41,501 bases of DNA from an uncultured Anaerolineales bacterium (GTDB taxonomy: Bacteria; Chloroflexota; Anaerolineae; UBA3071): the NCBI GenBank assembly GCA_965369635.1, contig CBDURC010000002.1, forward strand, positions 1 to 41,501. Reading direction: 5' to 3'. This document shows, piece after piece, positions 7,185-23,510 of the stretch. The notes beneath the pieces are model-generated. The model was not told the origin of the DNA and did no database searches. It was given only the letters and a program-made list of their open reading frames with translations. The position numbers and the translations under genes are program-made. Each line of letters begins with the position of its first letter. The first letter of the stretch is position 1.

Positions 7185-7994
7185 ATGAGCTTCATCAGAG
7201 GTCTTCGTACCAAGGCAGATCAGGTCACGCTGGAAGCTGACAAGATGCTTCGCATCAATCGCAAACGTAGTGAAATCGGTCAGCTTCGCAAGAGCATTTC
7301 GCAACTCATCACGCAATTGGGCAACACTGCCTACGGCCTGCATAACCAGGGCCAGACCCTTGCGCCTGAGTTGGCGCAGGTATGCCACCAGATTGATAAC
7401 CTGTACGCTGATATCCAGCGGATGGAGCAGGAAATCGAGCAGATCAGACGGGAAGCATTGCCCACCCAACCCATAGCATCAGCAGAGCGCTGTCACGTCT
7501 GCAGCGCCGCATTGCCCCAGGCAGCCACCTTCTGCCCGAGTTGCGGCAGCCCCCGGCCCAAACCGCAGCCTACCATCACCTGCAAGAACTGTGGCAGTAG
7601 CCTGCCGGCTGATGCCAGTTTCTGTGCTAACTGCGGCCAGCCCGTGGCGCTCTCTGGCCCGGAATCCGAAGACGTTGAGACACTCCCACCCAGCGAGCTG
7701 CCCAAGAGTGAGGCTATTCTGTGTTCCTCTTGCCGGACGGAAATCCCACTCCAGGCCACCTTCTGTCCCGTCTGCGACCATCCTGTTGCGATCCCTGGCT
7801 CGCAACTCGAAAGCGCGGAGACAGGCCCACCCATCGAACCGCCCAAGGCTGAGGCCACTCTGTGTTCCTCCTGCCAGGCGGAAATCCTGCTCCAAGCCAC
7901 CTTCTGCCCTGTGTGCGGTACTCCGGTGGACAGCGGTCCATCGTCGGAAGAGATGGTTGAGGAAGAAACTGTCGCAGACGAGGACGAGCCGTAG
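7185..7994 (+). CDS. Soluble coiled-coil protein with four tandem zinc ribbons and an acidic tail
   Basis: 269 aa with no TM segment. The N-terminal ~95 aa are heptad-like (EIGQLRKSISQLITQL...IQRMEQEIEQIRRE). Four ribbons follow: CHVCSAALPQAATFCPSCG, CKNCGSSLPADASFCANCG, CSSCRTEIPLQATFCPVCD, CSSCQAEILLQATFCPVCG. C-terminus is EEMVEEETVADEDEP. Confidence 0.8.
   Translation: MSFIRGLRTKADQVTLEADKMLRINRKRSEIGQLRKSISQLITQLGNTAYGLHNQGQTLAPELAQVCHQIDNLYADIQRMEQEIEQIRREALPTQPIASAERCHVCSAALPQAATFCPSCGSPRPKPQPTITCKNCGSSLPADASFCANCGQPVALSGPESEDVETLPPSELPKSEAILCSSCRTEIPLQATFCPVCDHPVAIPGSQLESAETGPPIEPPKAEATLCSSCQAEILLQATFCPVCGTPVDSGPSSEEMVEEETVADEDEP
7677..7958 (+). repeat. 141-nt (47-codon) tandem duplication encoding ribbon units 3 and 4
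   Basis: Copy 1 (7677-7817, gagacactcccaccc...) and copy 2 (7818-7958, gagacaggcccaccc...) align colinearly at roughly 80% identity by eye. Confidence 0.7.
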
Positions 7995-8047: not shown

Positions 8048-9721
8048 ATGCCTATAAACTGCCCACACTGTGATTTTGAGAATCATGAAGACGACCGTTT
8101 CTGTGTGGAATGCGGTCAATCTCTCTATGAGCCTGTGGCAGCACCAGCGTTGGAGCGGCCTCGCCGCCGCAGACGCTGTCCCTGGTTCCTCCTCCTTGCC
8201 TTGATTCTCCTGGTCGGCGCAGCCGCTGCTGTTCACTTCGACCTCGTTCCACTACCTTCGCCAATCGCTAGCCTGTTTGGGCAAAAGGCCCCGGATTTCC
8301 CAGATGTAGAGATCGTTGGCACGGGGGAGCCTTTCCTGGTACTGCAAGCAGCTGCCGATAGCGACTTGGAGGTAATCGTCACCGACGTTGTGGGCAACTA
8401 CATTGCCACAATTGGCCCAAACAATGGCGTAGACTCTGCCCGGTTCGTCTTCTATGATCCTGAGTACGCAGCTTGGTCAACTGCTCCTGTGCCGCAGATT
8501 TCCGGTGCTTCGGCTTGGGCCTGGCCTCGCGGCAGGTCCGCTCTGGTCGCCCTGCACGCACCAGAGGGGTGGGACCTGCTGCGCTACGATGCTTCCATCG
8601 GGGAGATAAGGGAGATCGTGCAGGCTGCTGAATACCTGCAGGTCTCCGGTCACGTGAAACACGACAGGTTCCTGTTGGTCTATTCCCAGGACGGGGAGTG
8701 GACGCTCGTAGGTGGAGACCCAGACGAAGAAGAGGCCATCGAATTTCTGGATCGAGCCGAGTCCATCACGGAATCCGTCATATCCAGCGATGGCAGGTAC
8801 GTGGCGTTTCTCACCGATGATCTCTACGTCGCCAGCACCGAAGGTCGGCGCACCTATCGTCAGCCAGGCGAGTACCAATCACTGGTCTATGCTCCCGATG
8901 GCCGTTACCTCTTCTACTCCAGTGGTCATCAGCTCATTCGAGCCGACGCCGACGGCCGCAACGCCCGCATCATCGCCGAGGTGGGGCGCAATGATCGCTT
9001 GTGGCCATTCAGTGTGGGCCAAGCCCAGCTCGCTGCTCTGCAGACCATCGGCGATAGCTACGACGTACGCGTCATGACCCTTGATGGCAGGAGCAGTACG
9101 CGTCTTGGCCGATCGGATGCCTCCTATTCGGCTCGCTATCTGCCTGGGCAACAGGGGCTGTTGATTGTCCAGGGCTCCGGCCCAACCTGGAGCGTGGAGC
9201 TAACCGACCCCGCCGGCGAGGGACGTCGCGATTTGGCGCGTGACGTTCAGGGTTTCGCCGTCCACCCGCTGCGGGACGGTCGACATATCGCCCTTGCCTA
9301 CCAGCAGGACAATCGTTGGCAGCTGATGCTCTACGACACGCGCGAGGACGAGCAGCAAGGCTTGGAGAGAGACCTGACCCAATTGTGGATTCTGGCGACG
9401 AACGAACGACATCTTGTCTACAGTGCCCAGTTCGAGGACGATTGGTCATTGCTGGCAGTGGATCTGCGTAACAAGGAAACGAGCGAGTTAGATTCCGGCT
9501 CACTCGGGGGCTATCCCATTGCCTTCTTCAGTATAGATGGAAAAGAGGTCATCTATGAGGCCCGCGAGGAGACAGTGGCGGAATTTGTCCTTGATGAAGA
9601 TGGTACTACCAACACGGTGTACCATATTCTGGGTGGCGTGTATGCTGTTGACCTGGAAGACCTCGCGCCGCGTCCCGTCTACGAGGGCGCCAACCTGCTG
9701 GCGGCTTCGCTGTCCCGCTAG
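8048..9721 (+). CDS. N-terminal zinc ribbon - TM - PD40/TolB-like beta-propeller ectodomain protein
   Basis: 557 aa. Ribbon at residues 5-23 (CPHCDFENHEDDRFCVECG), then RPRRRRRC plus TM FLLLALILLVGAAAAV. Blade-like repeats follow: SSDGRYVAF, YAPDGRYLFYSS, RDGRHIALAY, SIDGKEVIYEA. Confidence 0.75.
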   Translation: MPINCPHCDFENHEDDRFCVECGQSLYEPVAAPALERPRRRRRCPWFLLLALILLVGAAAAVHFDLVPLPSPIASLFGQKAPDFPDVEIVGTGEPFLVLQAAADSDLEVIVTDVVGNYIATIGPNNGVDSARFVFYDPEYAAWSTAPVPQISGASAWAWPRGRSALVALHAPEGWDLLRYDASIGEIREIVQAAEYLQVSGHVKHDRFLLVYSQDGEWTLVGGDPDEEEAIEFLDRAESITESVISSDGRYVAFLTDDLYVASTEGRRTYRQPGEYQSLVYAPDGRYLFYSSGHQLIRADADGRNARIIAEVGRNDRLWPFSVGQAQLAALQTIGDSYDVRVMTLDGRSSTRLGRSDASYSARYLPGQQGLLIVQGSGPTWSVELTDPAGEGRRDLARDVQGFAVHPLRDGRHIALAYQQDNRWQLMLYDTREDEQQGLERDLTQLWILATNERHLVYSAQFEDDWSLLAVDLRNKETSELDSGSLGGYPIAFFSIDGKEVIYEAREETVAEFVLDEDGTTNTVYHILGGVYAVDLEDLAPRPVYEGANLLAASLSR

Positions 9722-9749
9722 AAGGATCGTTTGGGAGATTTGAGAACAT

Positions 9750-12038
9750 ATGAAGCACACAAACAGACGGCTACTCACTGCTTTGAGCCTCCTCCTCGTT
9801 CTGTTTCAGGCTGTCGGTGCCCATGCTGGCGAGGAAACCTGGACAACAGACTCGTTGAGGGGATTCGACGTTCGGTCCATCATCGTTGATCCACAATCGC
9901 CAGCGCGCCTGTACGCTTTTGCGCCAGGGGTTACTATAGCCAGCGTTGACGGCGGCACCGAATGGGCGCCAAGTGGTGCTCTCCCTCTGGGGGGGCTGAC
10001 GCCCGGACAGTTCGAGATCGATCCCTTGACACCTGGTATCTTCTACGCGGTTCGTTCTGGTCAGCTCTGGCGCAGCCTTGATGCCGGTGCAACCTGGGCA
10101 GAGATCGCTCCTGGGTTGCTCAGTGACGTGCGCTGGTTCAGCCTGGACCAGGCTAATCCCAATATCATTTGGGCATTCACTGGCCAGGACACACTGCGTT
10201 CACTGGATGGGGGGCAGAATTGGGCTTCTGCCGGCTTGCCGGTGAGAGGACTGGCCACCAGCTTTGCTCAATCTGGTAGCGCGGTCTACATCGCAGTAGA
10301 GCAGCAAGGGCTGTTCCGCAGCGACGATGGCGGCAAGACCTGGCTGATCATCGGCGCAGAACTGCCAGCTTCTGCCTATTTGTTCGATTTGGCGATGGAT
10401 AATGCAGTTTCAGATACGGTTTATCTTTCCAGTGACCAGGGCCCTTTTCGCAGCAGCGATCGAGGTAGCACGTGGCAGCCGATTGCTCCCGAGCAGGGAA
10501 GCTGGCAACGGGCCAGACTGGCCATAACCGGATCGGGCAAAGGTGATATCCTTCTGATCTCACGAGATCGCTTTACGGCCATCAGCAGCGACGGCGGAGC
10601 GACCTGGCAGATATCTGAAGAACCCATTTTCGATGGCTACATACGGCAGGTGGTGATAGATCCGCAAGTCCGTGAGGTTGTCTACGTGCTGGCGAATACT
10701 CTATGGAAAAGCCAGGACGGAGGCGCCAACTGGAGCTTGCCATCCGTTCCTTCTTTGAACCTGCAACTGCTCGCCGCGCATCCCCGGCAAACTGACCGGC
10801 TCTATGCCAACAGCGGGTCAGGAATCCAACGCTCGGAAGACGGCGGCCGTAGTTGGCAGGCCGCTCCCGGATTTCCTGAGGGGCAAGGTGTGAGCGCTAT
10901 CGCTTGGGCGCCGGGCGACGCCAACGTTGCCTATGCCAGCTATGGACGTGGACTCTTGCGCAGCGCAGATGGTGGCGACCGAGAGTGGGTGGCGACCTTG
11001 CTGCCGGAAACGGCACTGGTTCAGGCTATTCGCGTCTCGCCACACGATCCCAACCTCGTCTTCATCGTGAGCAATGGGCGGGTGCTGTTCAGCAGTTCAG
11101 GTGGAGAGGCATGGGGTGTGCTACCCCTGGCCGCCGGAATCGCCGCCACAGATCTGGCCTTGTCGCATGAGGATGCCGGTGTGATCTACGTCGCCGCCGG
11201 CAGCAGTGTTTACAAGAGCGAAGATGAGGGTCTGACCTGGACAATGCAAGCTGACGGGCTTCCACATGTCTGGCGTTTGCTGATCAATCCTGTTAGCCCA
11301 CAACATCTGCTTGTGCTGGCCGGTGGCAGCGTATTGTCTAGTCAGGATGGCGGTCAGAGTTGGGTGCCGGTGCAGGGCCTGGAAGATCACCACAATGTGC
11401 GTGGCATTCTGCGCCATCCAGGAAGCCCGGCCATTCTCTACGCCTATGAGCTACAGCAGATCTATATCAGTCCGAATGGAGGCCAAACCTGGCTACCGAT
11501 GGGTGGAACCTTGCCGGGTCAGATTCAGAGTGTGGTCGCTGGTGGGGGCGATCTGCGCTATGTGCTGGCCATTATCAACAACAACACCGTCTGGCGCTAC
11601 AGCTTCCACGGCCTGCCGCCCACTCCCACACCGACGCCGACAGTGACGCCGACGGTGACGCCGACGCCAACCGTCACACCGACTCCTGCTCCTACCAGCA
11701 CGCCGACGCCCACGCCGCGGCCCAAGCTCGCCATCCGCCCCGCGGCCACGCCCATTGATCTCGATCCACCACAACGGCTGACCAAGGGCACAGGTGGAGA
11801 CCGCGGCGGCCGCGGCTGGCTGCCGTGGGTGGTCGGAATAGCGGCTGCTGCTGTGGTTGGACTGGTTGCCTTCTGGTGGTACCGTCGCCTCAGGACCGCT
11901 GCTCTACCTGTGCCTTATTCGCCGCCTCCACCAGCAGCAAAGCAGCCCCAGTTCATCGTTTGCTGCAAAGGGCATACCAGCCCACCGGGATCGCGCTTCT
12001 GCATGACCTGTGGTGAAGCGTTCGAAAAGGAGTCCTGA
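9750..12038 (+). CDS. Secreted BNR/Sortilin-Vps10 (Ycf48-like) double-propeller protein with PT linker, TM anchor and C-terminal cytoplasmic zinc ribbon
   Basis: 762 aa. Signal peptide LLVLFQAVGAHA. About 13 repeats of S-x-D-G-G-x-[TS]-W (RSLDGGQNW, RSDDGGKTW, ISSDGGATW, KSQDGGANW, RSEDGGRSW...). PT linker, TM WVVGIAAAAVVGLVAFWWY, then the tail CCKGHTSPPGSRFCMTCG. Confidence 0.8.
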   Translation: MKHTNRRLLTALSLLLVLFQAVGAHAGEETWTTDSLRGFDVRSIIVDPQSPARLYAFAPGVTIASVDGGTEWAPSGALPLGGLTPGQFEIDPLTPGIFYAVRSGQLWRSLDAGATWAEIAPGLLSDVRWFSLDQANPNIIWAFTGQDTLRSLDGGQNWASAGLPVRGLATSFAQSGSAVYIAVEQQGLFRSDDGGKTWLIIGAELPASAYLFDLAMDNAVSDTVYLSSDQGPFRSSDRGSTWQPIAPEQGSWQRARLAITGSGKGDILLISRDRFTAISSDGGATWQISEEPIFDGYIRQVVIDPQVREVVYVLANTLWKSQDGGANWSLPSVPSLNLQLLAAHPRQTDRLYANSGSGIQRSEDGGRSWQAAPGFPEGQGVSAIAWAPGDANVAYASYGRGLLRSADGGDREWVATLLPETALVQAIRVSPHDPNLVFIVSNGRVLFSSSGGEAWGVLPLAAGIAATDLALSHEDAGVIYVAAGSSVYKSEDEGLTWTMQADGLPHVWRLLINPVSPQHLLVLAGGSVLSSQDGGQSWVPVQGLEDHHNVRGILRHPGSPAILYAYELQQIYISPNGGQTWLPMGGTLPGQIQSVVAGGGDLRYVLAIINNNTVWRYSFHGLPPTPTPTPTVTPTVTPTPTVTPTPAPTSTPTPTPRPKLAIRPAATPIDLDPPQRLTKGTGGDRGGRGWLPWVVGIAAAAVVGLVAFWWYRRLRTAALPVPYSPPPPAAKQPQFIVCCKGHTSPPGSRFCMTCGEAFEKES
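11614..11723 (+). repeat. Pro/Thr-rich low-complexity linker coding repeat
   Basis: Encodes PPTPTPTPTVTPTVTPTPTVTPTPAPTSTPTPTPRP. Built from iterated acgccgac/gtgacgccgac units. Confidence 0.8.
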
Positions 12039-12040
12039 TC

Positions 12041-12817
12041 ATGCATACCCACTCGATTTCCGCCAAGCACCATCTGACCCACGCCAGCTTTCGCCGCTTG
12101 CTTTGCCTGCTCGCCGTTAGCATTGGCTTTGTGCTGGTGCTTGCCGGATGTGGCGATATAGAACAGGATGTGACGTTCTATGCCAATGAAAAATGGAAAG
12201 CGGAGTCTCGCGTCGGGTTGTCGCCGGAGGAACTTGCTATGGCTGGTGGTCAGGCAGAGATAGAGGCGTCTCTGAACGAGGGGCAGGCCACCGCCGAGGC
12301 ACAAGAGCTTGATTTTCGATGGAAGCGCCAGAAGGGCGACGACGACCGCCTGTATTACATCATCACTATGGCGGGAGAGGGATACGACCTGCTCAATCAG
12401 AACGCGTTTGGCGACACCGCCACGATTGACACGATCACGTACGATGGTCAAGATGCTGTCCAGTTCGACTTTGCATCACCCTATGACCTGTCTCACTACG
12501 AGTTGACTCTCCATGCTGGTGAGGTGCTCGATACCAATGGCAGTCAGGAGGGCAAGGGAGAAGTCCACTGGTCTGGTGCTGGTAAAAGGATGTACGCGGT
12601 TTTTGAGCCTCGAAGTGGACCAAACTGGCTGCTACTGGTTCTGGGATTGATCATGCTGGGTGCCATGGCTGTTGCTGGCTTTTTCTTCATCCGATCGTGG
12701 CAACACCAGCGAGGCCAGAAGACCGCCACAGCGTCGGCAAACTTCTGTCACAAATGTGGCACCAAGCTGGAGGGAGCAGGTAGATTCTGCCCGTCTTGTG
12801 GAGCCAGGCGAGCTTAA
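12041..12817 (+). CDS. Lipoprotein-type ectodomain - TM - C-terminal zinc ribbon protein
   Basis: 258 aa. Lipobox VLAGC, a ~165-aa unknown ectodomain, TM LLLVLGLIMLGAMAVAGFFFI, and the C-terminal ribbon CHKCGTKLEGAGRFCPSCG. AAGGAG RBS. Starts 2 nt after the preceding stop. Confidence 0.75.
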   Translation: MHTHSISAKHHLTHASFRRLLCLLAVSIGFVLVLAGCGDIEQDVTFYANEKWKAESRVGLSPEELAMAGGQAEIEASLNEGQATAEAQELDFRWKRQKGDDDRLYYIITMAGEGYDLLNQNAFGDTATIDTITYDGQDAVQFDFASPYDLSHYELTLHAGEVLDTNGSQEGKGEVHWSGAGKRMYAVFEPRSGPNWLLLVLGLIMLGAMAVAGFFFIRSWQHQRGQKTATASANFCHKCGTKLEGAGRFCPSCGARRA

Positions 12818-12875: not shown

Positions 12876-13814
12876 ATGCGTTGTCCTCACTGCAATGCTT
12901 CAGATGCCGGCAGCGGCAAGTTCTGCATTCACTGCGGCATGGCGCTGCCGCTTCAACCTGTGTCAACGACGCAACAGCCTGATCAAGCCGGTTCCCTCAT
13001 GTCCCGCGAAGACACCTCGCCGCAACCGCTTGCCACCAGACGAGATGTCGAGCTTCCCCAGAAGCGGCCAGCAACCGAGAGACCGGTTGCCCCTATGGGA
13101 CCAACTACCACCGCGCCGGCTAGCATTTGGGGGCCGTTCGCTGGCTACGGTACGCGAGGCCGCCACGTTGCCTGGTTGCTCGATGACTTGGGCCACCGCG
13201 CCGAAGATCTGCGTCAGGCAGTAACAGCGCGCTTTCAGCAGCGACGCATCCCTGGTGCAGATGTGATACCACGCATTCTGACTGCAAAGGGTGTGTTGGT
13301 CGAGCAACGCCCCTACTACCTCGTTCAGCGGGGCCGGGCCACGGCAGGCCTCTACCTGGCCAGGTTCGGTGAGGACATCTACATCTCCCAGGTCACCTAT
13401 TTCAAGAGTCCTGTCAGCACGGTGCGCATTCTTATTGCCGCCGCCTTGATTGCTTTCATAATTGCCTACCCTGCGATGCTCTCCTCAGCCGCAGATGACG
13501 TGTCAGCCGATCTGTTCGGTGGCGTCTACGGCGCGGGCGAGCTAGCCAGAATGCTGTGCTGCCTCGGGCCTTTCTACCTGGTGAGCTTTCTGGTCTTGAC
13601 ATTGGTTGCCCTGATGAGCCTGTGGAAGTTCATCACCGAGAAGGACCTCCTGGCGCCACTACGAGTACAGCCCAACGAGTTCGACCAGGACGATCTGATC
13701 GCCCTGGAGAAAGCTGTCGAGCAGACCGTGCGCGAGTCGCTGGACGTCGTGGGCATTGATCGCCAGCTCATGCCGCCGGCAGCGCGCTACGGCTTACGAG
13801 GACGCATCATTTGA
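12876..13814 (+). CDS. N-terminal zinc ribbon - cytoplasmic domain - 2-3 TM membrane protein, partner of the downstream ATPase
   Basis: Start set at ATG 12876 (GAGGGAGG RBS). The ribbon MRCPHCNASDAGSGKFCIHCG begins at residue 3. A ~120-aa domain follows (HVAWLLDDLGHRAEDLRQAV...YYLVQRGRATAGLYLARFGEDIYISQV). Hydrophobic segments are ILIAAALIAFIIAYPAML and LCCLGPFYLVSFLVLTLVALMSLW. The stop TGA overlaps the next start. Confidence 0.7.
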   Translation: MRCPHCNASDAGSGKFCIHCGMALPLQPVSTTQQPDQAGSLMSREDTSPQPLATRRDVELPQKRPATERPVAPMGPTTTAPASIWGPFAGYGTRGRHVAWLLDDLGHRAEDLRQAVTARFQQRRIPGADVIPRILTAKGVLVEQRPYYLVQRGRATAGLYLARFGEDIYISQVTYFKSPVSTVRILIAAALIAFIIAYPAMLSSAADDVSADLFGGVYGAGELARMLCCLGPFYLVSFLVLTLVALMSLWKFITEKDLLAPLRVQPNEFDQDDLIALEKAVEQTVRESLDVVGIDRQLMPPAARYGLRGRII

Positions 13815-16504
13815 TCTCGCCAATTGAAATGAACAGCTTCCCACTGGTCCACACCGCCAATCAAGCTGCCACCTTTGGCTTCAGGCTGCCGTACCTGCCG
13901 GATTTCTTGGAAGACCACACGCTGGTCGGCGAGCGACGAGCCGAGAAAGTCGAGGAGGTGCTGGCCCGCCAGGTGCAGTTTATCGAGACGTTGTGGCGCT
14001 GGCGCAACACGGCTTTCAGCTTGCGTTACCTCTACGAGCCAGGGGCAGCGACGTTGCAAGTAGCGCTTCTGGCCCGTATTGCCGGTCGTCCACAGACAAG
14101 CCGTCGCGCCGGACAGGAGTTGGCCGCTAATCTACTGCGCCTGGGCCAGGCCTTCAGTTTACCGCTCCAGCCAATCGAGCATCAGAACGAGTTGCTGCAC
14201 CTGCTCGATCCTTTCGACCAGGCTGCCATCGTGGAACTGCGCCAGCGCGATGATGTGGTGCCACTGACCTGGCTCAACAGCGATGCCTACGTTGTCTACC
14301 CGCTGGGCCAGCCGGCTGGTAGCTTTCTGCCACCGTTCCAGAGCCTGGCCCACTACGCCGATCCTATTCTGATCAACCTGCACATCCAACCTACACAACT
14401 GAGCGGGCAGGAGACCCAGGCTCTGGCCGAAGCAGCCAGCATCGCCCAGACCGCCAGTGATTGGCAACGCCAGGGCTACAGTCCTCAGCACAGCGGCCGC
14501 TTCGTTGATCCGCAGGCGCAACTGGTGGCTCAGGCCTACAGCGGTTATCTGCGCCGGTTGTCGCAGCCTTTCCTGGTCGTCGCTCAGGTGGTTAGCCCCA
14601 ACCCCGTGGCCTCTATGAGCCTGGCCCAATCGTTGGCGGTAGCTGCTACCGTTCGTCCTGCCGGTCAGAATACCGGCAACGAGCTGCCCCCTGCGCTTGA
14701 CTGCCTTCCCGCCCTCCACCCAGACGATGCCCAGCGGGCCAGGCAAACGCTGAGTGAACTCAATCTAGCGATTTGGGGGAACCACAGGGCTACGCCGGGC
14801 AAGGAACGGTTCCGCTATCTCGTCGATGCCCGGGGGGCTGCGGCCCTGTTTCGGTTTCCCATAGCTGTGCAGGGCGGCATTCCTGGCATCGTCGTACGAC
14901 AGGCGGCGCCCGACTTCGTGGCGGGCGAGCAGCGGCATCACTTGCAGGCGGGTGAGCTGCACCTGGGCAACTACCAGAGCGGTGGCAACGTGGTGATGCC
15001 CATTGCTCACCTGACCCGCCACGGCCTGATCGCCGGTCTGCCCGGCAGCGGCAAGACCAACACATGCCTCTACCTGCTGGATCAGCTCTGGCGACGGCAT
15101 GGCGTTCCCTTCTTGGTCATTGAGCCGGCCAAGACGGAATACCGCGGGTTGCTCCGGCAGCCGGGCTACGAGGATCTGCTCATCTTCACCCTGGGTGACG
15201 AGACCACTGCGCCCTTCCGGCTCAATCCATTCGAACTGCTGCCAGGCGTGCGCGTGGAGACCCACCTGGAGATGCTCAACGTGGCCATCAATGCCGCCCT
15301 GCCCCAGTTTGGCGTCCTGCCCACCATCATCGAGGAGGCGTTGGAGAATGTCTACGCCCAGCATGGCTGGGAACTGACGGATCGGGCGGGCGAGGATAGC
15401 AATCGCTTGTTCCCCACCCTGGGGGACTTCTATCGAGAAGCCGTGCGGGTCGTGGGAGAGCGCGGCTACAGAGGTGAGCTGCGCGACAACATCACCGCCG
15501 CCGTCAAGGGACGTATCGGTAGCCTGCTGCGGGGCAGCAAGGGCATGATGTTCAACTGCCGCCGCTCGCTGCCGCTGGAGCACCTGCTCAGGCGGCCAGT
15601 GATTCTGGAAATGGACGCTCTCAACGATGACGCCAAGGGGTTGGCCATCATGTTCCTGTTGATTCTGCTGCGTGAGCACCGGCGCACGACTCGCGGAAAT
15701 CAGCCCCGGCGCGGCCTGCGCCACTTACTGCTCATCGAAGAAGCGCATCGGGTGATGGAAAACGTGACCTCGGTAGGGCCATCGGAGGTGGCGGCCGACA
15801 CCCGGGCCAAGGCTGTGCGAGTCATCACCGACTTCCTGGTAGAAATGCGAGCGATGGGTCAGGGCATGTTGATTGCCGAGCAGAGCCCGGAGAAGTTGGC
15901 CCCCGACGCAGTGCGCAACACCAATCTGAAGATAGCGCACATGCTACCAGGCAGGCAGGATCGCGAAACGCTGGCAGCGGCCATGATCATGGACGAGCAA
16001 CAGGAGCTCTTCATGGGCAAGTTGCGGGTAGGCCAGGCGGCCGTGTTCATGACCGGATTCGAGAAAGCCACCTTCATGCGGGTGCCTAACTACAAGGATA
16101 GCGTGGGCTTTGCCGACCATCTGCCGGATGCAGCCGTGGTGGAGCACATGGTTGGCTATCGCCAAACGGCGCAGCAGCACTACCTGCCCTTCGACGGCTG
16201 TCGCTTTTGTGGCGAGCCGTGCTATCACCGTCGGGCCATTGAGCCGGTCACGCGGCACAGGGAGATAGCTCAGCGCTTTCAGGTGGCCTTGCTGGCCTTC
16301 GATGAGCGTCCGCAACCGGAGCACTGGCCTGACAACTGGCGCGGCGTGGCCGGAGTGTGCGCCGAGGCGGCGGCGCAAGCTGGTCTGCCTGGAGGAAAGG
16401 AGGTTGCCTACTGCTATTTCGCCCACGAAGTTGATTTTCCGTTCACCGAGCACATGCGGCGCGAGTTTGTGCGGGCTGTTGAGGCATTGCCGGCGAGCGG
16501 GTAG
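13811..16504 (+). CDS. HerA/FtsK-superfamily (DUF87-like) P-loop ATPase with a ~400-aa unknown N-terminal domain and a Cys-knuckle C-terminal domain
   Basis: 897 aa. Walker A GLPGSGKT (15035-15058). Walker B LLLIEEAH (15725-15748). HerA-type block RNTNLKIAHMLPGRQDRE. C-terminal CRFCGEPCYH knuckle. TTG start at 13811 lies 8 nt after GAGGA and overlaps the upstream TGA (TTGA). Confidence 0.8.
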   Translation: MISPIEMNSFPLVHTANQAATFGFRLPYLPDFLEDHTLVGERRAEKVEEVLARQVQFIETLWRWRNTAFSLRYLYEPGAATLQVALLARIAGRPQTSRRAGQELAANLLRLGQAFSLPLQPIEHQNELLHLLDPFDQAAIVELRQRDDVVPLTWLNSDAYVVYPLGQPAGSFLPPFQSLAHYADPILINLHIQPTQLSGQETQALAEAASIAQTASDWQRQGYSPQHSGRFVDPQAQLVAQAYSGYLRRLSQPFLVVAQVVSPNPVASMSLAQSLAVAATVRPAGQNTGNELPPALDCLPALHPDDAQRARQTLSELNLAIWGNHRATPGKERFRYLVDARGAAALFRFPIAVQGGIPGIVVRQAAPDFVAGEQRHHLQAGELHLGNYQSGGNVVMPIAHLTRHGLIAGLPGSGKTNTCLYLLDQLWRRHGVPFLVIEPAKTEYRGLLRQPGYEDLLIFTLGDETTAPFRLNPFELLPGVRVETHLEMLNVAINAALPQFGVLPTIIEEALENVYAQHGWELTDRAGEDSNRLFPTLGDFYREAVRVVGERGYRGELRDNITAAVKGRIGSLLRGSKGMMFNCRRSLPLEHLLRRPVILEMDALNDDAKGLAIMFLLILLREHRRTTRGNQPRRGLRHLLLIEEAHRVMENVTSVGPSEVAADTRAKAVRVITDFLVEMRAMGQGMLIAEQSPEKLAPDAVRNTNLKIAHMLPGRQDRETLAAAMIMDEQQELFMGKLRVGQAAVFMTGFEKATFMRVPNYKDSVGFADHLPDAAVVEHMVGYRQTAQQHYLPFDGCRFCGEPCYHRRAIEPVTRHREIAQRFQVALLAFDERPQPEHWPDNWRGVAGVCAEAAAQAGLPGGKEVAYCYFAHEVDFPFTEHMRREFVRAVEALPASG

Positions 16505-16541: not shown

Positions 16542-16910
16542 ATGAACTGTCCCAGTTGTAACGCCGTCAATCCCGATGGCGGCAGATTCTGTATGACTTG
16601 CGGCCAGCCATTATCTGCTGTGACGGCATCCAGCGCCACCGACGTTCCAGCTACTGCGTCCGCGGCAAAGATGACTACGTCACCCACTGCACCGCCTATC
16701 GCAGCTCTGCCCGTGAACAGCGCGGCGGGTATGCAAAGCCTGAGAGTCGTCGTGACCGACGTGAACATGCAATTTGGATCGATGGTTGTCTTCATGATCA
16801 AGTGGGCATTGGCGGCAATTCCTGCCGCTATCGTGCTCGTACTTGCGTTTGCCCTGATCTCGGCAATCTTTGGCGGCTTGTTAGGTGGAATCCTGTCCAC
16901 CCTCTTCTGA
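16542..16910 (+). CDS. Small zinc ribbon - linker - two-TM membrane protein (DUF4282-like, unverified)
   Basis: Start trimmed to ATG 16542 (AAAGGAGAG RBS). The ribbon MNCPSCNAVNPDGGRFCMTCG starts at residue 3. Ser/Thr/Ala/Pro linker, then a hydrophobic C-terminal half FGSMVVFMIKWALAAIPAAIVLVLAFALISAIFGGLLGGIL. Confidence 0.7.
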   Translation: MNCPSCNAVNPDGGRFCMTCGQPLSAVTASSATDVPATASAAKMTTSPTAPPIAALPVNSAAGMQSLRVVVTDVNMQFGSMVVFMIKWALAAIPAAIVLVLAFALISAIFGGLLGGILSTLF

Positions 16911-17088: not shown

Positions 17089-17604
17089 ATGTATCAACAA
17101 CAGCCCTCCAAGAACCCAGCTCTGGCAGCCATCCTCAGTTTCCTGATCAATGGTCTGGGGCAGATCTACAACGGAGAGATTGCCAAAGGGATCATCATCA
17201 TTGTCGTCCAGATTGTGAACGGGTTGCTGACTATGGTGATTATCGGTTTCATCACTTTGCCTATCGTCTGGATCTGGTCGATCTACGACGCCTATACGGT
17301 TGCCCAGAAGATCAATGAGGAGGCCACAACACAGGTCATTGAGGGAACCAAGCAATGCCCGCGTTGCGCTGAACGTGTTCATTTGAGTGCACAGGTTTGT
17401 CGCTATTGCGGCTATCAGTTCGTTCCGGCTGTAGCAGCCCTAGCAACGCCTGCGCAGCAACCGGTTTTCCCTCAGTCGCCTCCTTCTGCACAGCCGCCAC
17501 AGCCGGCTGCGGCGCAAACAAAGCCCTGTCCCCAGTGTGGTCAGCAGGCTCAAGCCGAGGCACGCTTCTGTATGCATTGCGGATATGCGTTTGAGACAGC
17601 ATAG
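17089..17604 (+). CDS. Small two-TM membrane protein with two C-terminal zinc ribbons
   Basis: 171 aa. N-terminal NPALAAILSFLINGLGQIYNG motif plus a second TM. Ribbons CPRCAERVHLSAQVCRYCG and CPQCGQQAQAEARFCMHCG are separated by a Pro/Gln/Ala linker. Confidence 0.75.
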   Translation: MYQQQPSKNPALAAILSFLINGLGQIYNGEIAKGIIIIVVQIVNGLLTMVIIGFITLPIVWIWSIYDAYTVAQKINEEATTQVIEGTKQCPRCAERVHLSAQVCRYCGYQFVPAVAALATPAQQPVFPQSPPSAQPPQPAAAQTKPCPQCGQQAQAEARFCMHCGYAFETA

Positions 17605-17814: not shown

Positions 17815-19437
17815 ATGATGCGAGTTCCTCACCTACGGCGCGTAATTCTAACGTCACTACTTTTGGCCGTGTGCCTCTTCACGGATTGTCGTCAGGCAAC
17901 ACACGCCTCGGAGCCACCCATTTGGCGTGGCGGGCTCCTTTGTGAGCCAACGCAGCAACACTTCCGAGGCGTGGAGTATTGTACGTCTGAGGATAGACAG
18001 GTACACGTCATCGTTGTGGATCTCCACAGCCCAGGTGTCCGGTTGGAGTACATCATTGCTAAGGGTATGAACGGAGACGGGACGTTTGGCGAGTGCAGAG
18101 ATGTCAACCGGCCGTACTGGGGGCCAGTCCGGGGAGGGTGCCACGACAGTAAGAATGAGCTCTATCCGGTGATGTCGTTGGCCGACGCTGTCAGGCGCTA
18201 TACCACTGCTGCAGCAGTGATCAATAGTGACTACGGGGCTTTTGAACCGGGCGAACCAAAGAACCGGGGGCATGGCCCTGAAGGGTTCACTGTAGTTCGC
18301 GGCGATCGTCGAGATGGTCCTGCACTTGGAGACACCGACAACAACGCCGAGAACCGTCCCTGGCTAGCGGTCAGCCAAGATGCGCCTCTGCGAGCGGAAC
18401 TGCGGCAGTTTGGCCCAGGCAAGGACGACGGTGGCAAGCCCGACTGGGTGTATACAGGAGTGGGTGGCGCTCCGTGGCTGATCAGGCACGGCAGCATCCA
18501 AAACGAGCACGTCGCAACTTGCAGGGACGCGAGGGAGGGGGCTTGCCGCCAAGGTGCAGCACAGACGGCCGCGGGGCTTTCTTCCGATGGGCGCTGGCTG
18601 TTCCTGGTGGTGGATGAGCGCAAGGTGGTGGAAGAGCGCAAAGCCATGTTGATCGATCTTGCCGAATTCATGTATGAGCGGTTGGGGGTCTCGGAAGCCA
18701 TCAAGTTCGATGGCGGCGGTTCTTCCCAACTATGGTATGGTGGAGAGGTTATCACACCCCGTGATGAGCGACTTCTCTCGCAATACCTGGCGGTTATAGC
18801 AGACCAGGGGCATGGAATCGATAACAACGCTGGCGTACCTGAATTGCACGCATCGCCCGTTTCCCTCGTTTTCTATGACATTGTGCTGCCTGGAGAAACG
18901 GCTGAGTTGACGTTTAGGATGCGCAATGAGGGACGCACGGCGTGGGAGCATTCTGGGTATTCGTTGGTTGTTGTAGAAAAAAACCTGACGTCAGCACCTA
19001 TGTCATTGCCGGTGGAAGGTGCTGTACTGCCAGGCGACACCTCCCAATGGACAGTGCGGATTCCAACCGAGGCTGGTTCTGTTTGGCCCGATCTGCGCTC
19101 CGTGACCTGTCAGATGCACTACGAAGATGAGGCCTTTGGCAAAGTCGCTACCGGCTATGTGATCGTGTTGCCAGAAAAGCTGAAGTGGCTCGAAGGCCGT
19201 ATCCGAGAGCAAATCGAGGAATGGCAGCAGCAGGGCGAGCAGGCGGTCGAGGACCTGATGCAGCAGATATGGGACTCGATCCAAAAAGAATTCGCAGAGC
19301 AGCGTGACCAATTGCTAGAGAGGTTATGGCGAAAGGTCAAGGGGTTTGTCGAAGAGCTTCTTGCGTCGTGTACGGGATCATTTGCGATGCTGGGATTGGC
19401 GCTGGCTTTCACATGTCGGCGACGACGTCGCCACTGA
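17815..19437 (+). CDS. Secreted phosphodiester glycosidase (NAGPA/DUF2233) family protein with an Ig-like domain, coiled coil and C-terminal TM plus poly-Arg tail
   Basis: 540 aa with a signal peptide. Family-typical blocks are AAAVINSDYG, GGAPWLIRHG, AAGLSSDGRWLFLVVDE, AIKFDGGGSSQLW. C-terminus is SCTGSFAMLGLALAFTCRRRRRH. No zinc ribbon. Confidence 0.7.
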   Translation: MMRVPHLRRVILTSLLLAVCLFTDCRQATHASEPPIWRGGLLCEPTQQHFRGVEYCTSEDRQVHVIVVDLHSPGVRLEYIIAKGMNGDGTFGECRDVNRPYWGPVRGGCHDSKNELYPVMSLADAVRRYTTAAAVINSDYGAFEPGEPKNRGHGPEGFTVVRGDRRDGPALGDTDNNAENRPWLAVSQDAPLRAELRQFGPGKDDGGKPDWVYTGVGGAPWLIRHGSIQNEHVATCRDAREGACRQGAAQTAAGLSSDGRWLFLVVDERKVVEERKAMLIDLAEFMYERLGVSEAIKFDGGGSSQLWYGGEVITPRDERLLSQYLAVIADQGHGIDNNAGVPELHASPVSLVFYDIVLPGETAELTFRMRNEGRTAWEHSGYSLVVVEKNLTSAPMSLPVEGAVLPGDTSQWTVRIPTEAGSVWPDLRSVTCQMHYEDEAFGKVATGYVIVLPEKLKWLEGRIREQIEEWQQQGEQAVEDLMQQIWDSIQKEFAEQRDQLLERLWRKVKGFVEELLASCTGSFAMLGLALAFTCRRRRRH

Positions 19438-20154: not shown

Positions 20155-20580
20155 ATGATTGAGCAGATCAAGTCTTTTCTAATGGATCACGGCTGGGAGT
20201 TTGAGCAGGTCGATGAGTGCACAATCGCCACTGGTTTCACCTCTTCCCTGCCCGATGGCCGTGAGCACAGCTTTCCACTATACGTCATGATCCTCAGGGA
20301 CATGTTCGAGGACCTGTATGTCCGTCTGGGCATTGTGCCCTACGTGGACAGGCCGAAGGCTGGCTACGCTGCCAATCTCCCCAGTCTGATCACCCAGATT
20401 AACCATGACCTGCCAGAGCTGAAACTTGCCGTTGATCCTGATGGGGATTTGGAGTTGCTCCTTGACATGCCCGCAAGTCAGGTCGATCAGGCTCGCTTTG
20501 ATGCGGCGATCCAGTCTGTGGCTGACTACGCAGGCCTCTACTACAACGAAGTTGCGTCTGCTTCAGTATCAGGCTCGTGA
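20155..20580 (+). CDS. YbjN / T3SS-chaperone-like small acidic protein, putative immunity or antitoxin partner
   Basis: Preferred start is ATG 20155 (MIEQIKSF), 6 nt after a perfect AGGAGG. An alternative ATG at 20140 overlaps the toxin stop as ATGA. The pattern is YbjN-like: GWEFEQVDE...F.LYVMI...LYVRLGIVPYV...LAVDPDGDLELLLDMP. Confidence 0.55.
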   Translation: MIEQIKSFLMDHGWEFEQVDECTIATGFTSSLPDGREHSFPLYVMILRDMFEDLYVRLGIVPYVDRPKAGYAANLPSLITQINHDLPELKLAVDPDGDLELLLDMPASQVDQARFDAAIQSVADYAGLYYNEVASASVSGS

Positions 20581-21854
20581 CCAAGCAGTCCCGTTTCTGC
20601 CCCAACTGTGGCGCACAACAGCGCCGGCCCGATGGTCGCTTCTGCCCCAACTGCGGCCAGCCTTGGGGTGTGCAGGCGGCAGATGCAGCAACTCCAGAGC
20701 GTGAGCCAGACCGCCGCAGCCGCCGGCTCGTGTGGCTGCTGCCCCTGGTGCTGGTGGCAGCGCTTGTGTTGGCTACTGTGATCTTCTGGGAGCCAGCGAG
20801 CGAAGCGTACCAGGTGCTGATAGGTCGCTGGCGATCCAGTACACCGCCCACACCCGCTGTTCCCATGGCCAGGGCGGTAGCAACTCAGACGAGAGTGGCA
20901 AGCGCTGCACCCGAAGAACCCGCAGTCCCTGGCGTGCTCCCGACGGCAACGCCACCGCCAACAGCCACTGCGCCACTAGCGCCTACGCCGCAGCCGACCA
21001 ACACTCAGCCGCCCACGGCGCCGCCTAAGCCTACCGCCACACCCCAGCCCACGGCGACACCGCCAGCGACGGCGACGCCCTCGCCCACTACCATCCCCAG
21101 TCCATCACCAACACCTGAGCTGATGGCCTTTGTGCGCGAGAACGCTAGCCTGCGGACGGGGCCAGGTCAGGACTTCGACCGAATCGAGGTGCTGGCTGGT
21201 GGTCAGCAGTTGATGATACTGGGACGCGACGAGGCGGGCGACTGGCTCCAGGTGGAAGCACCCGATGGCGCCACCGGTTGGATCTTCGCAGACCTTCTCA
21301 ATACGGGTTCGCTGATGATTGGTGCCATTCCCGTGACGACTGCGCCGAATCTGCCGCAATGCGCCATTGCAGTTGATGGCCGCTTGCGTACCGCCTACCA
21401 GCGCAGTTTGCTGGGTTGCCCGATTGCCGAGGCACACATCACGTGGTCGGCATGGGAGCCCTTCGAGCGGGGGGCGATGCTCTGGCGCGGCGATACGAAT
21501 AGAGTGACAGTGTATCACTCAGATGGCTGGGCGACGATTGATGACTCGTGGGATGGGGTATCGCCGCCGTCCTCTCGTGGGTCTCCACCTTTCGGTCTGC
21601 AGGCGCCCGTGCGGGGGTTTGGCTGGCTGTGGGGGCGTCGGGACGACGTGTTCAACTGGATGGGCTGGGCCACAGACATCGAGAAGGGATTCTGCGCCCT
21701 CGTACAGGACTTCGACCGAGGCTTCATCTACACCAAGAGCGATGCCTCGCACTGTACGGATCGATGGGGCAACCGCAACTTCAGCCTGGCCCATGAATTG
21801 CCCAGGCTCTTAAGCGCCGCTTACGAGAACGGCGCTAGTTGGAAGTCCTACTGA
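20577..21854 (+). CDS. Zinc ribbon - TM - PT linker - SH3b - conserved C-terminal module protein
   Basis: 425 aa. GTG start overlaps the upstream TGA (GTGA). Ribbon FCPNCGAQQRRPDGRFCPNCG. TM LVWLLPLVLVAALVLATVIFW. SH3b-like LRTGPGQDFDRIEVLAGGQQLMILGRDEAGDWLQVEAPDGATGWIF. The C-terminal module is shared with the next gene. Confidence 0.75.
   Translation: MTKQSRFCPNCGAQQRRPDGRFCPNCGQPWGVQAADAATPEREPDRRSRRLVWLLPLVLVAALVLATVIFWEPASEAYQVLIGRWRSSTPPTPAVPMARAVATQTRVASAAPEEPAVPGVLPTATPPPTATAPLAPTPQPTNTQPPTAPPKPTATPQPTATPPATATPSPTTIPSPSPTPELMAFVRENASLRTGPGQDFDRIEVLAGGQQLMILGRDEAGDWLQVEAPDGATGWIFADLLNTGSLMIGAIPVTTAPNLPQCAIAVDGRLRTAYQRSLLGCPIAEAHITWSAWEPFERGAMLWRGDTNRVTVYHSDGWATIDDSWDGVSPPSSRGSPPFGLQAPVRGFGWLWGRRDDVFNWMGWATDIEKGFCALVQDFDRGFIYTKSDASHCTDRWGNRNFSLAHELPRLLSAAYENGASWKSY
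20938..21117 (+). repeat. Pro/Thr/Ala-rich linker coding region
   Basis: Encodes LPTATPPPTATAPLAPTPQPTNTQPPTAPPKPTATPQPTATPPATATPSPTTIPSPSPTP. Confidence 0.8.
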
Positions 21855-21887: not shown

Positions 21888-23510
21888 ATGGCAGATCACC
21901 CGATGTTCTGTCCCCAATGCGGGGCACCTTCTGACAATCCTGACGCTCGCTTCTGCGGCCAATGTGGAGGCTCTATGCCAGGGGCAGCCACCAGCATCTC
22001 AACGGGCGCCAAGCCGATGGCAGTCTCAAGTGAACGCCAGTCTCGCCCGAGGCGCCGGTGGCCAATCGTGTTGGCAGTTGTGTGCTTGCTGGTGCTGGCC
22101 GGGGCAGCGCTCGTCTGGTTAACACCTGCGCGGGAGCTTGTGCTGGCCATGCTGCCGCTCGGCCGATCGGAGTTGCCACCAATGCCCAGAGGGGCACCCT
22201 CGCCGACCGGTGCGGCTGCAACCGAGACACTGGTACAGACACCCACGTCTGTTGTAACAGCGACTCCAGAAATACGAGCTACCCAGCCTCAACCCTCTAC
22301 GCTGACGCCAACGGCAACCACCGCGCCGCCAACGCTGCCTCCCACCAGCACGCCGCGTCCAACGGCGACGTTTCCACCCACAGCCACGCCTCTGCTCACA
22401 GCGACTGCGGCCGCGACGCCGACGCCTGTTGAGCCGTCACCCGCTCCGCCGGCTACCCTTCACTACCACACACTCTCTCTGCAAGGGATCGCCAACGCCA
22501 ACATAGCCGAGGGCTACGTCGGCCCACCACTGGGCAACGTGACCCTGGGAAGCGTGCCTTTCAATCTGGGCCAGGGCGGGAGCGTCACTACCCAGGCGGA
22601 ACCGCTTCCTGATCATCCCCAGCAGGTGCGACTGCCAGCCGATGTACCCAGACCCCATGCTGTCTACTTGCTGGTTACCGGCGGCAACATGTATAGTCGC
22701 TTTGCCGGCCGAGTCATCGGTCTAGTGCGACTCGTCTTCGATGATGGCGCAGACTATGACATTGATTTGATCAGCGGCCAAAACATCCGCGAATGGAAGC
22801 ACTCCGGCGAGGGAATTGTATCAGAGGCAAGCAGTCCTGACTTGACTGAGGTATGGCGGGGGCAAAATCGCCATGATGAGGGCACAGCAGTCATAGACAT
22901 GCTCACCATCTGGGTGCCTGAGGGACTGCGAGGAAAACGGCTGTCCAGCATTGAGATCAACGACCGCAGCACCGAAACCGTCGGCGAGATGGATCCAGCC
23001 CTAAACTGGATCGGTGCGACAGTGGCCGGTGCCGAAAACGTCCAGCCAACGCCCGCTCCACCAGCATGTCAGTTCGAACCGGAAGGCCGCTTCGCTGCCC
23101 TATGGCAGCAGCACCGAGATCTACTAGGCTGTCCACTCAACCAGCCTACCCAAAGCGGTGCCGCCACCGAGCGGTTTCAGCACGGTCGCATGATCTGGGG
23201 TGAGAACAGAGACTGGCACTACGTGCTGTACGATGACGGAACGTGGGAGAGCTATGGCAACGAGTACGAAGAAGGCATGCAAGAGCCCGGAATCTATCAA
23301 CCGCCGACTGGCCTGTTCGTACCGGTGCTTGGTTTCGGCATTGTTTGGCACAAGCACCTGGGCGGAGCCGATGCTCGTATCGGCTGGGCGACTGAGCAAG
23401 AGTACTGGCTGCCTATTCAGGTGCAGGATTTCGAAACCGGTCTCGCCATTGAAATGGAGAGCGTGACCTATCTGCTGGGCGATAGTGCCGCCCGCTGGTT
23501 CACGCCGTGA
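21888..23510 (+). CDS. Zinc ribbon - TM - PT linker - unknown ectodomain - conserved C-terminal module protein (paralogous architecture to 20577-21854)
   Basis: 540 aa. Ribbon MFCPQCGAPSDNPDARFCGQCG. RPRRRW plus TM PIVLAVVCLLVLAGAALVWL. C-terminal LLGCPLNQ...RFQHGRMIWGE...VLGFGIVW...IGWATEQE...VQDFETG aligns with the previous gene. Confidence 0.75.
   Translation: MADHPMFCPQCGAPSDNPDARFCGQCGGSMPGAATSISTGAKPMAVSSERQSRPRRRWPIVLAVVCLLVLAGAALVWLTPARELVLAMLPLGRSELPPMPRGAPSPTGAAATETLVQTPTSVVTATPEIRATQPQPSTLTPTATTAPPTLPPTSTPRPTATFPPTATPLLTATAAATPTPVEPSPAPPATLHYHTLSLQGIANANIAEGYVGPPLGNVTLGSVPFNLGQGGSVTTQAEPLPDHPQQVRLPADVPRPHAVYLLVTGGNMYSRFAGRVIGLVRLVFDDGADYDIDLISGQNIREWKHSGEGIVSEASSPDLTEVWRGQNRHDEGTAVIDMLTIWVPEGLRGKRLSSIEINDRSTETVGEMDPALNWIGATVAGAENVQPTPAPPACQFEPEGRFAALWQQHRDLLGCPLNQPTQSGAATERFQHGRMIWGENRDWHYVLYDDGTWESYGNEYEEGMQEPGIYQPPTGLFVPVLGFGIVWHKHLGGADARIGWATEQEYWLPIQVQDFETGLAIEMESVTYLLGDSAARWFTP
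22285..22452 (+). repeat. Pro/Thr/Ala-rich linker coding region
   Basis: Encodes QPQPSTLTPTATTAPPTLPPTSTPRPTATFPPTATPLLTATAAATPTPVEPSPAPP. Confidence 0.8.

Follow-up and report, generated by a model that had tools for sequence, protein, structure and literature searches.

The window analyzed here, a 41,501-nucleotide stretch from an uncultured Anaerolineales bacterium (contig CBDURC010000002.1, positions 1 to 41,501), carries a 27-kb gene cluster, many of whose membrane proteins begin or end with a short Cys-rich motif identified by Pfam as a zinc ribbon of PF13240/PF12773. Proteins are referred to below by the first nucleotide of their genes; the cluster starts with 7185, and every gene between 7185 and 34373 is on the + strand. 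We found that the ribbon is carried by whichever terminus, N or C, is predicted to face the cytoplasm, and that this placement rule is a general property of the domain rather than something special to the window. Sequence comparison with related genomes further supports the view that the ribbons are functional, since they are conserved, linked to a gene set around a HerA/FtsK-like ATPase, and come in locus-specific flavours.

Topology of the ribbon-bearing proteins

Topology was assigned from a Kyte-Doolittle hydropathy scan and from flank charge, i.e., the number of Lys and Arg (K/R) residues in the 15 positions before versus the 15 positions after each transmembrane segment (TM), with manual checks. 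The open reading frames (ORFs), ribbons, and hydrophobic segments listed in a preliminary description of the window were all found where it had placed them. Eight proteins lacking a signal peptide had been assigned the order ribbon, Arg-rich stretch, TM, ectodomain (type II), and six of them indeed have it. In 8048 (8048..9721), an N-terminal ribbon (nt 8060-8113, aa 5-22) is followed by the stretch RPRRRRR, a TM (nt 8177-8233, aa 44-62), and a large beta-propeller ectodomain; six K/R residues precede the TM and none follow it. The other five proteins have a basic stretch between ribbon and TM and are similarly biased: 20577 (20577..21854; 5 v 1), with a PT linker and an SH3b ectodomain; 21888 (21888..23510; 5 v 2), with a PT linker and an ectodomain; 26237 (26237..28027; 5 v 2), with an FCM-type ribbon and a DUF3352 ectodomain (Pfam DUF3352 1.7e-63, Zn_Ribbon_1 8e-8); 28053 (28053..29954; 4 v 1), with an FCM-type ribbon and a beta-helix ectodomain; and 32196 (32196..34373; 5 v 1), with two N-terminal ribbons, RRRR as the basic stretch, and a TPR/SH3b ectodomain (Pfam DZR 1.3e-11, SH3_3). 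The two remaining proteins had to be redrawn. In 12876 (12876..13814), the N-terminal ribbon is followed by ca. 165 cytoplasmic residues, two TMs, and a cytoplasmic C-tail, with no ectodomain, while 16542 (16542..16910; sub-threshold Pfam match and hydropathy scan) consists of an N-terminal FCM-type ribbon, a linker, and a C-terminal hydrophobic anchor, with neither Arg stretch nor ectodomain.

The converse order, i.e., signal peptide or lipobox, ectodomain, TM, basic stretch, and C-terminal ribbon, had been ascribed to two proteins and is borne out in both. The type I protein 9750 (9750..12038) starts with a signal peptide (nt 9750-9827; n-region charge +3, 12-residue h-region, cleavage between AHA and GE), continues with a BNR/Sortilin-type propeller, a PT-rich linker, and a TM (nt 11817-11873, aa 690-708), and ends with an atypical ribbon (nt 11961-12011, aa 738-754). 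The LppM-like lipoprotein 12041 (12041..12817) has a lipobox with Cys37 (nt 12149-12151), a TM (nt 12629-12685, aa 197-215; hydropathy 2.59), a basic stretch, and a ribbon (nt 12746-12799, aa 236-253). A third arrangement, also as previously described, is seen in 17089 (17089..17604; Pfam UPF0547, Zn_ribbon_3, DUF5683), where a DUF5683-like TM hairpin is followed by two C-terminal ribbons, predicted to be cytoplasmic.

It had also been proposed that the positive-inside rule puts every ribbon on the cytoplasmic face. The best placement is cytoplasmic throughout, but the rule itself is not decisive for three proteins: K/R residues are balanced at the C-terminal TMs of 9750 (4 v 3) and 12041 (3 v 3), and the flanks of 17089 are likewise uninformative. 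Because the flank charges are balanced, the orientation of 9750 and 12041 rests on the signal peptide and the lipobox. The cluster also contains internal controls for the cytoplasmic side. In 29950 (29875..32181; the true start is probably at ca. 29950, hence the name), an FHA domain and an ABC ATPase domain are joined directly to the ribbon and precede an ABC2 permease (Pfam ABC_tran, ABC2_membrane, FHA, Zn_Ribbon_1), and 7185 (7185..7994) is a soluble coiled-coil protein with four to five ribbons of FCP type and no TM (Pfam DZR 3.6e-26). In related loci, ribbons precede Ser/Thr kinase domains. The known extracytoplasmic domains (LysM, SH3b, PD40, BNR, and DUF3352) are always on the opposite side of the membrane from the ribbon. 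We are highly confident that the cytoplasmic placement of the ribbons is secure.

The placement rule beyond the window

Ribbon+TM proteins from the window's genome, its relatives, and a global sample, 126 in all, were pooled. The K/R-richer flank of the nearest TM was on the ribbon side in 99 proteins and on the other side in 16 (sign test 9e-16), and cross-tabulation of ribbon side (N/C) with K/R-richer side gave 78/11 and 5/21 (Fisher 9e-11). When counted by family (26 single-linkage families), the result was 20 v 4 (p 0.0015).

Within the window's genome, a hidden Markov model of the ribbon built from the window detected 18 ORFs at 12 bits or more, 11 of them in the cluster. The seven ribbon+TM proteins encoded elsewhere obey the placement rule; among them, LysM and PD40 proteins have their ribbons at the N-terminus, and a polytopic CreD-like protein has its ribbon at the C-terminus. 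Proteins in which a single N-terminal anchor is combined with a C-terminal ribbon (L013, L036, P0052, P0115) have their K/R residues after the anchor, as predicted for an N-out, C-in orientation. A family that recurs in relatives (L006, L009, L011, L012, L014, L015) has a signal peptide, an ectodomain with a SLWPEYD-like start, a TM, and a strongly K/R-rich stretch leading to a C-terminal ribbon, to which L009 adds a TM and a rhodanese-like end. The global sample was obtained by searching 1.84 billion representatives with a double ribbon; of the 150 proteins recovered, 98 lacked a TM by hydropathy scan, and the membrane proteins were overwhelmingly of the ribbon-first kind, with K/R residues ahead of the TM. 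The ribbons are found at the extreme ends of proteins: in 45 N-type proteins the median position of the first Cys is residue 4, and in 30 C-type proteins a median of 8.5 residues separates the last Cys from the C-terminus.

Proteins that seemed to break the rule have mis-called TMs, and inspection by eye revealed no convincing case of an outside ribbon. TM counts from the hydropathy peak picker are unreliable for polytopic proteins (the four TMs of L021, for example, were taken for three), the "TMs" of P0128, P0014, P0111, and P0132 are doubtful, and in C20 a charged hairpin loop is misread by the charge rule. PF13240 ribbons were present in 41 of the 41 relatives searched. The top-scoring PF13240 loci in these relatives mostly encode soluble proteins (ca. 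345 aa) that end in three tandem ribbons, and thus supplied few membrane cases; these three-ribbon proteins (L017, L019, L020, L022, L029, L040, L045) look like one widespread family.

The preliminary description had taken compartment-consistent placement as an argument that the ribbon is a functional module. Function is supported, but by the conserved ribbon residues described below; consistent placement is weak evidence for it, because such placement is a general rule of the domain family and a Cys4-Zn site could hardly persist outside. An explicit earlier statement of the rule for PF13240/PF12773 was not found in literature searches. The rule is an expected one, and its main use is in annotation, in that a short Cys4 ribbon shows which end of a membrane protein is cytoplasmic. 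The ribbon can be overlooked by gene callers, as in the database model of 26237: the public gene model (P0001, 527 aa) has a GTG start within the TM helix and leaves out the ribbon and the linker, while the homologs P0002-P0004 show the conserved form to be the 596-aa one that includes the ribbon.

Identity and conservation of the ribbons

Four Cys residues in two knuckles, CxxC-x(8-14)-CxxC, which are the putative zinc ligands, are present in all of the ribbon proteins listed except 9750, whose non-canonical ribbon has CCKGH (a CxxH first knuckle), an 8-residue spacer, and CMTC, with no Pfam match. Matches above the PF13240/PF12773 curated cut-off were obtained for 7185, 17089, 26237, 29950, and 32196, and sub-threshold matches for 8048, 12041, 16542, 20577, and 21888; there were none for 9750, 12876, and 28053. 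In AF2 models, the ribbons are predicted to form short beta elements, with pLDDT values of ca. 85 for 8048 and 68-77 for 12041. The 8048 model consists of the ribbon, a helix at 47-61, and an all-beta remainder predicted to be a large propeller, for which the sortilin Vps10 propeller gave the best global match (TM-score 0.5). The 9750 ectodomain matches Pfam Sortilin-Vps10 (5e-28). The possibility that 8048 and 9750 are one family anchored both ways was considered and rejected: both ectodomains are propellers, but their homology is undetectable (hhalign probability 0.75%). The 12041 model comprises a signal helix, a domain matching LppM, a helix at 196-229, and the terminal ribbon; in a Foldseek search, the LppM structure 2nc8 was the sole match below 1e-3 (E 2.4e-5, probability 1.00, target TM-score 0.53).

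An alignment of six in-cluster 12041 sequences (from the window and five relatives) revealed that C236, C239, C250, and C253, together with F235, G240, F249, and G254, are invariant, as are C37 and Leu34 of the lipobox LAGC. In the 12041 and 8048 families alike, the invariant ribbon positions are all four Cys, an aromatic residue directly ahead of the third of them, and the Gly that follows the knuckle(s), while overall identity to the window protein is ca. 29% in the former family and 41-58% in the latter. Judged from these alignments, the ribbons on cluster-resident orthologs are under strong purifying selection.

Gain of tail and ribbon

Homologs that differ in the presence of a ribbon also differ in the length of their cytoplasmic tails. 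DUF3352 homologs with 45-50% identity have the ribbon, while those with 23-29% identity have only a tail of 10-25 residues followed by the TM. In the genomes of two relatives, G056 and G157, the 9750 orthologs have the same topology and end 12 residues past the TM, with no ribbon. All six in-cluster 12041 orthologs and all six members of the 8048 family have the ribbon. Two out-of-cluster 12041 homologs end right after the TM and are ribbon-less, and no ribbon ORF was found within 10 kb on either side of them. Given the short tails of ribbon-less homologs, tail and ribbon arrive together.

The terminus switch is therefore best explained as domain accretion constrained by compartment. A Cys4 zinc ribbon of 20 residues, of PF13240/PF12773 kind, can exist only in the cytoplasm and, together with a flexible linker of 20-60 residues, was added to whichever tail already faced this compartment. 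The recipient end is the N-terminus in type II proteins, the C-terminus in proteins with a signal peptide or a lipobox and a C-terminal anchor, and the C-terminus again after a TM hairpin.

A conserved gene set around a HerA/FtsK-like ATPase

The gene 13811 (13811..16504) codes for an 897-aa HerA/FtsK-like ATPase (Pfam DUF87/HerA_C/FtsK), a constant neighbour of ribbon-tagged proteins; 12876, immediately upstream, is its putative membrane partner. The C-terminal part of 13811 has a Cys/His cluster of its own, CRFCGEPCYH, which is possibly a metal site. The HerA-like ATPase was found in 22 of 251 genomes of the class, and a search of relatives from the same genus or family did not detect it. 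In G056 and G157, nearly the whole set (7185, 9750, 12041, 12876, 13811, a 16542-like gene, 21888, 28053, 26237, 29950, and 32196) is syntenic, with ribbons kept in every family but 9750, and the core is also syntenic in G098, G215, and G236. Orthologs of 7185 head the cluster in all five of these genomes. The 12876 orthologs (45-51% identity; five genomes) have their ribbons at residues 3-20 and adjoin the ATPase, and small ribbon+TM genes like 16542 come after the ATPase in G056, G157, and G215. Ribbon-bearing 21888 orthologs with 46-49% identity were found in G056, G098, and G236, 29950 orthologs share 59% identity and an N-terminal ribbon, and 32196 orthologs were found as well.

More distant HerA-like loci (36-39% identity; L064:346-7362 and L064:12088-12540; L063, L071) have up to five consecutive ribbon-tagged membrane proteins preceding the ATPase, including proteins with the order ribbon, Ser/Thr kinase, TM, FGE-sulfatase, or double ribbon, kinase, TM. 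Two further loci were recorded. A same-family genome contains another ribbon-rich co-directional cluster (L047/L048, G003:C73:1-29634), which has no HerA-like ATPase and encodes three large soluble proteins whose ribbons are N-terminal, two polytopic ones that are also ribbon-tagged (one a 29950 homolog), and small ribbon proteins. At G243:C1:34282-36399, an ATPase homolog is in three pieces with 2-5 in-frame TGA codons each, indicating either a decayed copy or a reading problem.

Ribbon signatures

Half of the membrane-protein ribbons of the core clusters share a rare residue, a Met after the third Cys. The resulting motif, FCMxCG, was present in 17 of 34 core-cluster membrane ribbons versus 14 of 835 background ribbons drawn from the global sample, the relatives, and the rest of the window's genome (Fisher 2e-18). 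No fewer than seven non-homologous families have the Met, in ribbons at either terminus (family-level binomial 1e-9); the 28053 orthologs of G056 and G157, for example, have RFCMACG. A search with the corresponding DNA pattern gave 113 matches in the 251 genomes, 32 of them in the 10 genomes with a core-type ATPase, or 3.2 per genome versus 0.34 in the 241 others; by eye, the latter value looks close to a reversed-pattern control, which was not summed. At least two matches were found in 6 of the 10 and in 9 of the 241 genomes, respectively (Fisher 3e-6), and the matches are mostly beside the ATPase (7 of 7 in G056; 5 of 6 in the window's genome). In the distant HerA-like loci, a different signature, CxxCGxxNR, prevails (19 of 26 versus 4 of 835 in the background).

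Possible roles of the ribbons

Since the tail is gained along with the ribbon and ribbon flavour goes with ATPase lineage, a tethered docking tag is the most economical mechanism. The window ribbons belong to a conserved gene set around the HerA/FtsK-like ATPase and its putative, ribbon-tagged membrane partner; as docking tags they would bring together, at one shared hub in the cytoplasm, proteins whose ectodomains are unrelated. Candidates for the hub are the 12876/13811 ATPase complex and 7185, the coiled-coil protein with several ribbons. We regard the ribbon as a putative system-specific cytoplasmic docking tag, a model that is plausible but falls somewhat short of probable. The combined explanation, in which cytoplasmic accretion, a conserved system, and a putative docking tag are taken together, has in our judgement an even chance of being right. 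A further and rather doubtful extension is that the flavours constitute an addressing code, whereby each HerA/FtsK-like ATPase lineage would recruit its own unrelated envelope proteins, kinases, and transporters via a matching ribbon variant, FCMxCG here and CxxCGxxNR in kinase-rich relatives.

Several observations weigh against these proposals. The topology call is crude, being based on hydropathy and charge, and orthologs are not independent, so that raw P values overstate the significance. The ribbon is dispensable on in-cluster 9750 orthologs, and its surface varies outside the structural Cys, Phe, and Gly positions. Approximately half of the cluster membrane ribbons lack the Met, which is replaced by His in the 21888 family, Val in 8048, and Ala or Ile in 29950, with the window's own 12041 and 12876 having Pro and Ile, respectively. 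Overall ribbon identity within a locus gave p 0.054 in a permutation test, the signal being confined to single positions, and the signature could partly reflect descent by intra-locus duplication. One locus, L079 (G218:C4:66000-85999), has ribbon-bearing 7185-, 12041-, 12876-, and 21888-like genes and no 13811 match within 20 kb. As ribbons were found in all the relatives searched and the ATPase in 22 of 251 genomes, most ribbons must work without it. Finally, the docking partners are candidates only.

The same variable surface would be expected if the ribbon were just a generic module, i.e., a promiscuous zinc knuckle of the cytoplasm whose role is non-specific, such as providing a folded end, weak self-association, or general protein contacts, with the FCM and NR signatures recording its spread within a locus by duplication and recombination. 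The worldwide validity of the placement rule in unrelated proteins, the ubiquity of ribbons in relatives, and their gain and loss on orthologs all fit this explanation, as does PGPGPFCM, which is common to 12876 and 16542-like ribbons and points to common descent. However, several non-homologous families have kept the Met while their ectodomains diverged to 29-45% identity, FCMxCG co-occurs with the ATPase across the 251 genomes, and in-cluster 12041 orthologs never lose a ribbon that their out-of-cluster homologs lack. With these points counted, we consider a generic module possible but on the whole unlikely.

The terminal position of the ribbons raises the possibility that they act as caps or stability switches: a zinc-folded knot would block processive AAA+ proteases such as FtsH, and zinc loss or Cys oxidation would expose the tail and lead to turnover. 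E. coli FtsH initiates at tails and is a weak unfoldase. The location of the ribbons at the very ends of proteins and the purely structural nature of the invariant residues agree with such a role, but a terminal position is also expected from fusion at gene ends, and locus-specific signatures would not be anticipated. Moreover, a long tail comes with the ribbon, and adding a tail merely to cap it would be unparsimonious; because the two arrive jointly, a tethered binding module fits better than a cap, which appears improbable to us.

The ribbons might instead bind DNA or RNA, as do many zinc ribbons in the transcription machinery, and so tether envelope proteins to it. Nucleic acid binding is common among zinc ribbons, and the stretches beside the window ribbons are basic. 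For B. subtilis YdjG, a DNA-binding TF_Zn_Ribbon annotation has been given to the ribbon (PMC9239133). The positive-inside rule, however, accounts for the basic stretches. The ribbons themselves are minimal, with few basic surface residues conserved, and their genomic association is with the ATPase, FHA domains, and kinases rather than with transcription genes, making nucleic acid or nucleoid binding very improbable. Hardly credible is a topogenic plug, in which a fast-folding N-terminal ribbon would block translocation of the N-terminus and fix it inside: most ribbons are N-terminal and start at residue 3-4, but the idea fails for C-terminal ribbons, for soluble multi-ribbon proteins, and for ribbons ahead of large cytoplasmic domains, and the K/R stretch already sets the orientation.

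Among the unexplained appendages of prokaryotic membrane proteins, PF13240/DZR ribbons rank with the commonest. In this cluster, roughly twelve proteins are tagged, a hub can be proposed, and one residue (the Met of FCMxCG) is diagnostic, which makes the question of what a ribbon binds testable. Should the addressing code be true, the window would encode a previously unrecognised modular envelope machine, membership of which is written in the ribbon.

Other genes of the window

A Pfam scan was made of 18 cluster proteins. Apart from those described above, the cluster includes a NAGPA-domain protein (17815..19437), a Tox-GHH protein with a YbjN-like neighbour (19649/20140), and a PD40 and C39-like protein (23565), all assigned by domain. 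In the NAGPA-domain protein, the N-terminus is signal-like and nothing but RRRRRH comes after a C-terminal TM; this is a type I layout like that of 9750 and 12041, with no ribbon. Upstream of the cluster are Liv-type ABC transporter genes and a DJ-1 remnant; housekeeping genes are located downstream.

Comparison with known systems

The ribbons share the CxxC-x10-[FY]CxxCG pattern with PF13240/PF12773, domains that are widespread in bacteria and archaea and often end membrane or multidomain proteins. They differ in that several window ribbons are below the cut-off or unmatched and that cluster ribbons carry the rare Met; the Pfam families themselves have no attached function. ZAS anti-sigma factors have an N-terminal cytoplasmic zinc module, one TM, and an extracytoplasmic domain, and thus resemble the type II proteins of the window. 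The window motif is, however, a 20-residue Cys4 ribbon rather than the HxxxCxxC of a helical domain, and it also occurs at C-termini. A ZAS-type membrane anti-sigma factor was rejected as a candidate, as neither PF13490 (zf-HC2) nor a sigma-factor domain was present among the 18 cluster proteins scanned.

M. tuberculosis LppM (Rv2171) has been described as having a lipobox and a C-terminal TM (PMC5217060). Both features recur in 12041, where the folded domain also matches 2nc8; the two proteins are 14% identical over the fold alignment, and 12041 adds a cytoplasmic basic stretch and a ribbon past the TM.

At the level of the whole locus, the cluster is reminiscent of type VII secretion systems, variants of which contain FHA domains in EssC-type ATPases, the pseudokinase EssB, and, in T7SSc-j loci, kinases and FHA proteins (PMC11217815). 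In both cases, an FtsK/HerA-class membrane ATPase is found amid bitopic proteins whose small cytoplasmic domains mediate, or in the window may mediate, assembly, FHA domains and kinases are present in the loci, and nuclease toxins are nearby. In contrast, 13811 has a single HerA/DUF87-type domain, and the shared module is a zinc ribbon, not FHA. The resemblance is an analogy of logic, not membership, WXG100 and YukD not having been searched for.

Another parallel is provided by CdpC of Haloferax volcanii, likened here by description rather than by homology: CdpC is archaeal, has an amphipathic helix instead of a TM, and lacks an ectodomain. It is a double zinc-ribbon membrane anchor of FtsZ1 whose zinc ligands are needed for binding (10.64898/2026.07.16.738847). 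Small zinc ribbons joined by a long disordered linker, docking a protein at the cytoplasmic face of the membrane, are the arrangement that the window ribbons, if they are docking tags, would share with it.

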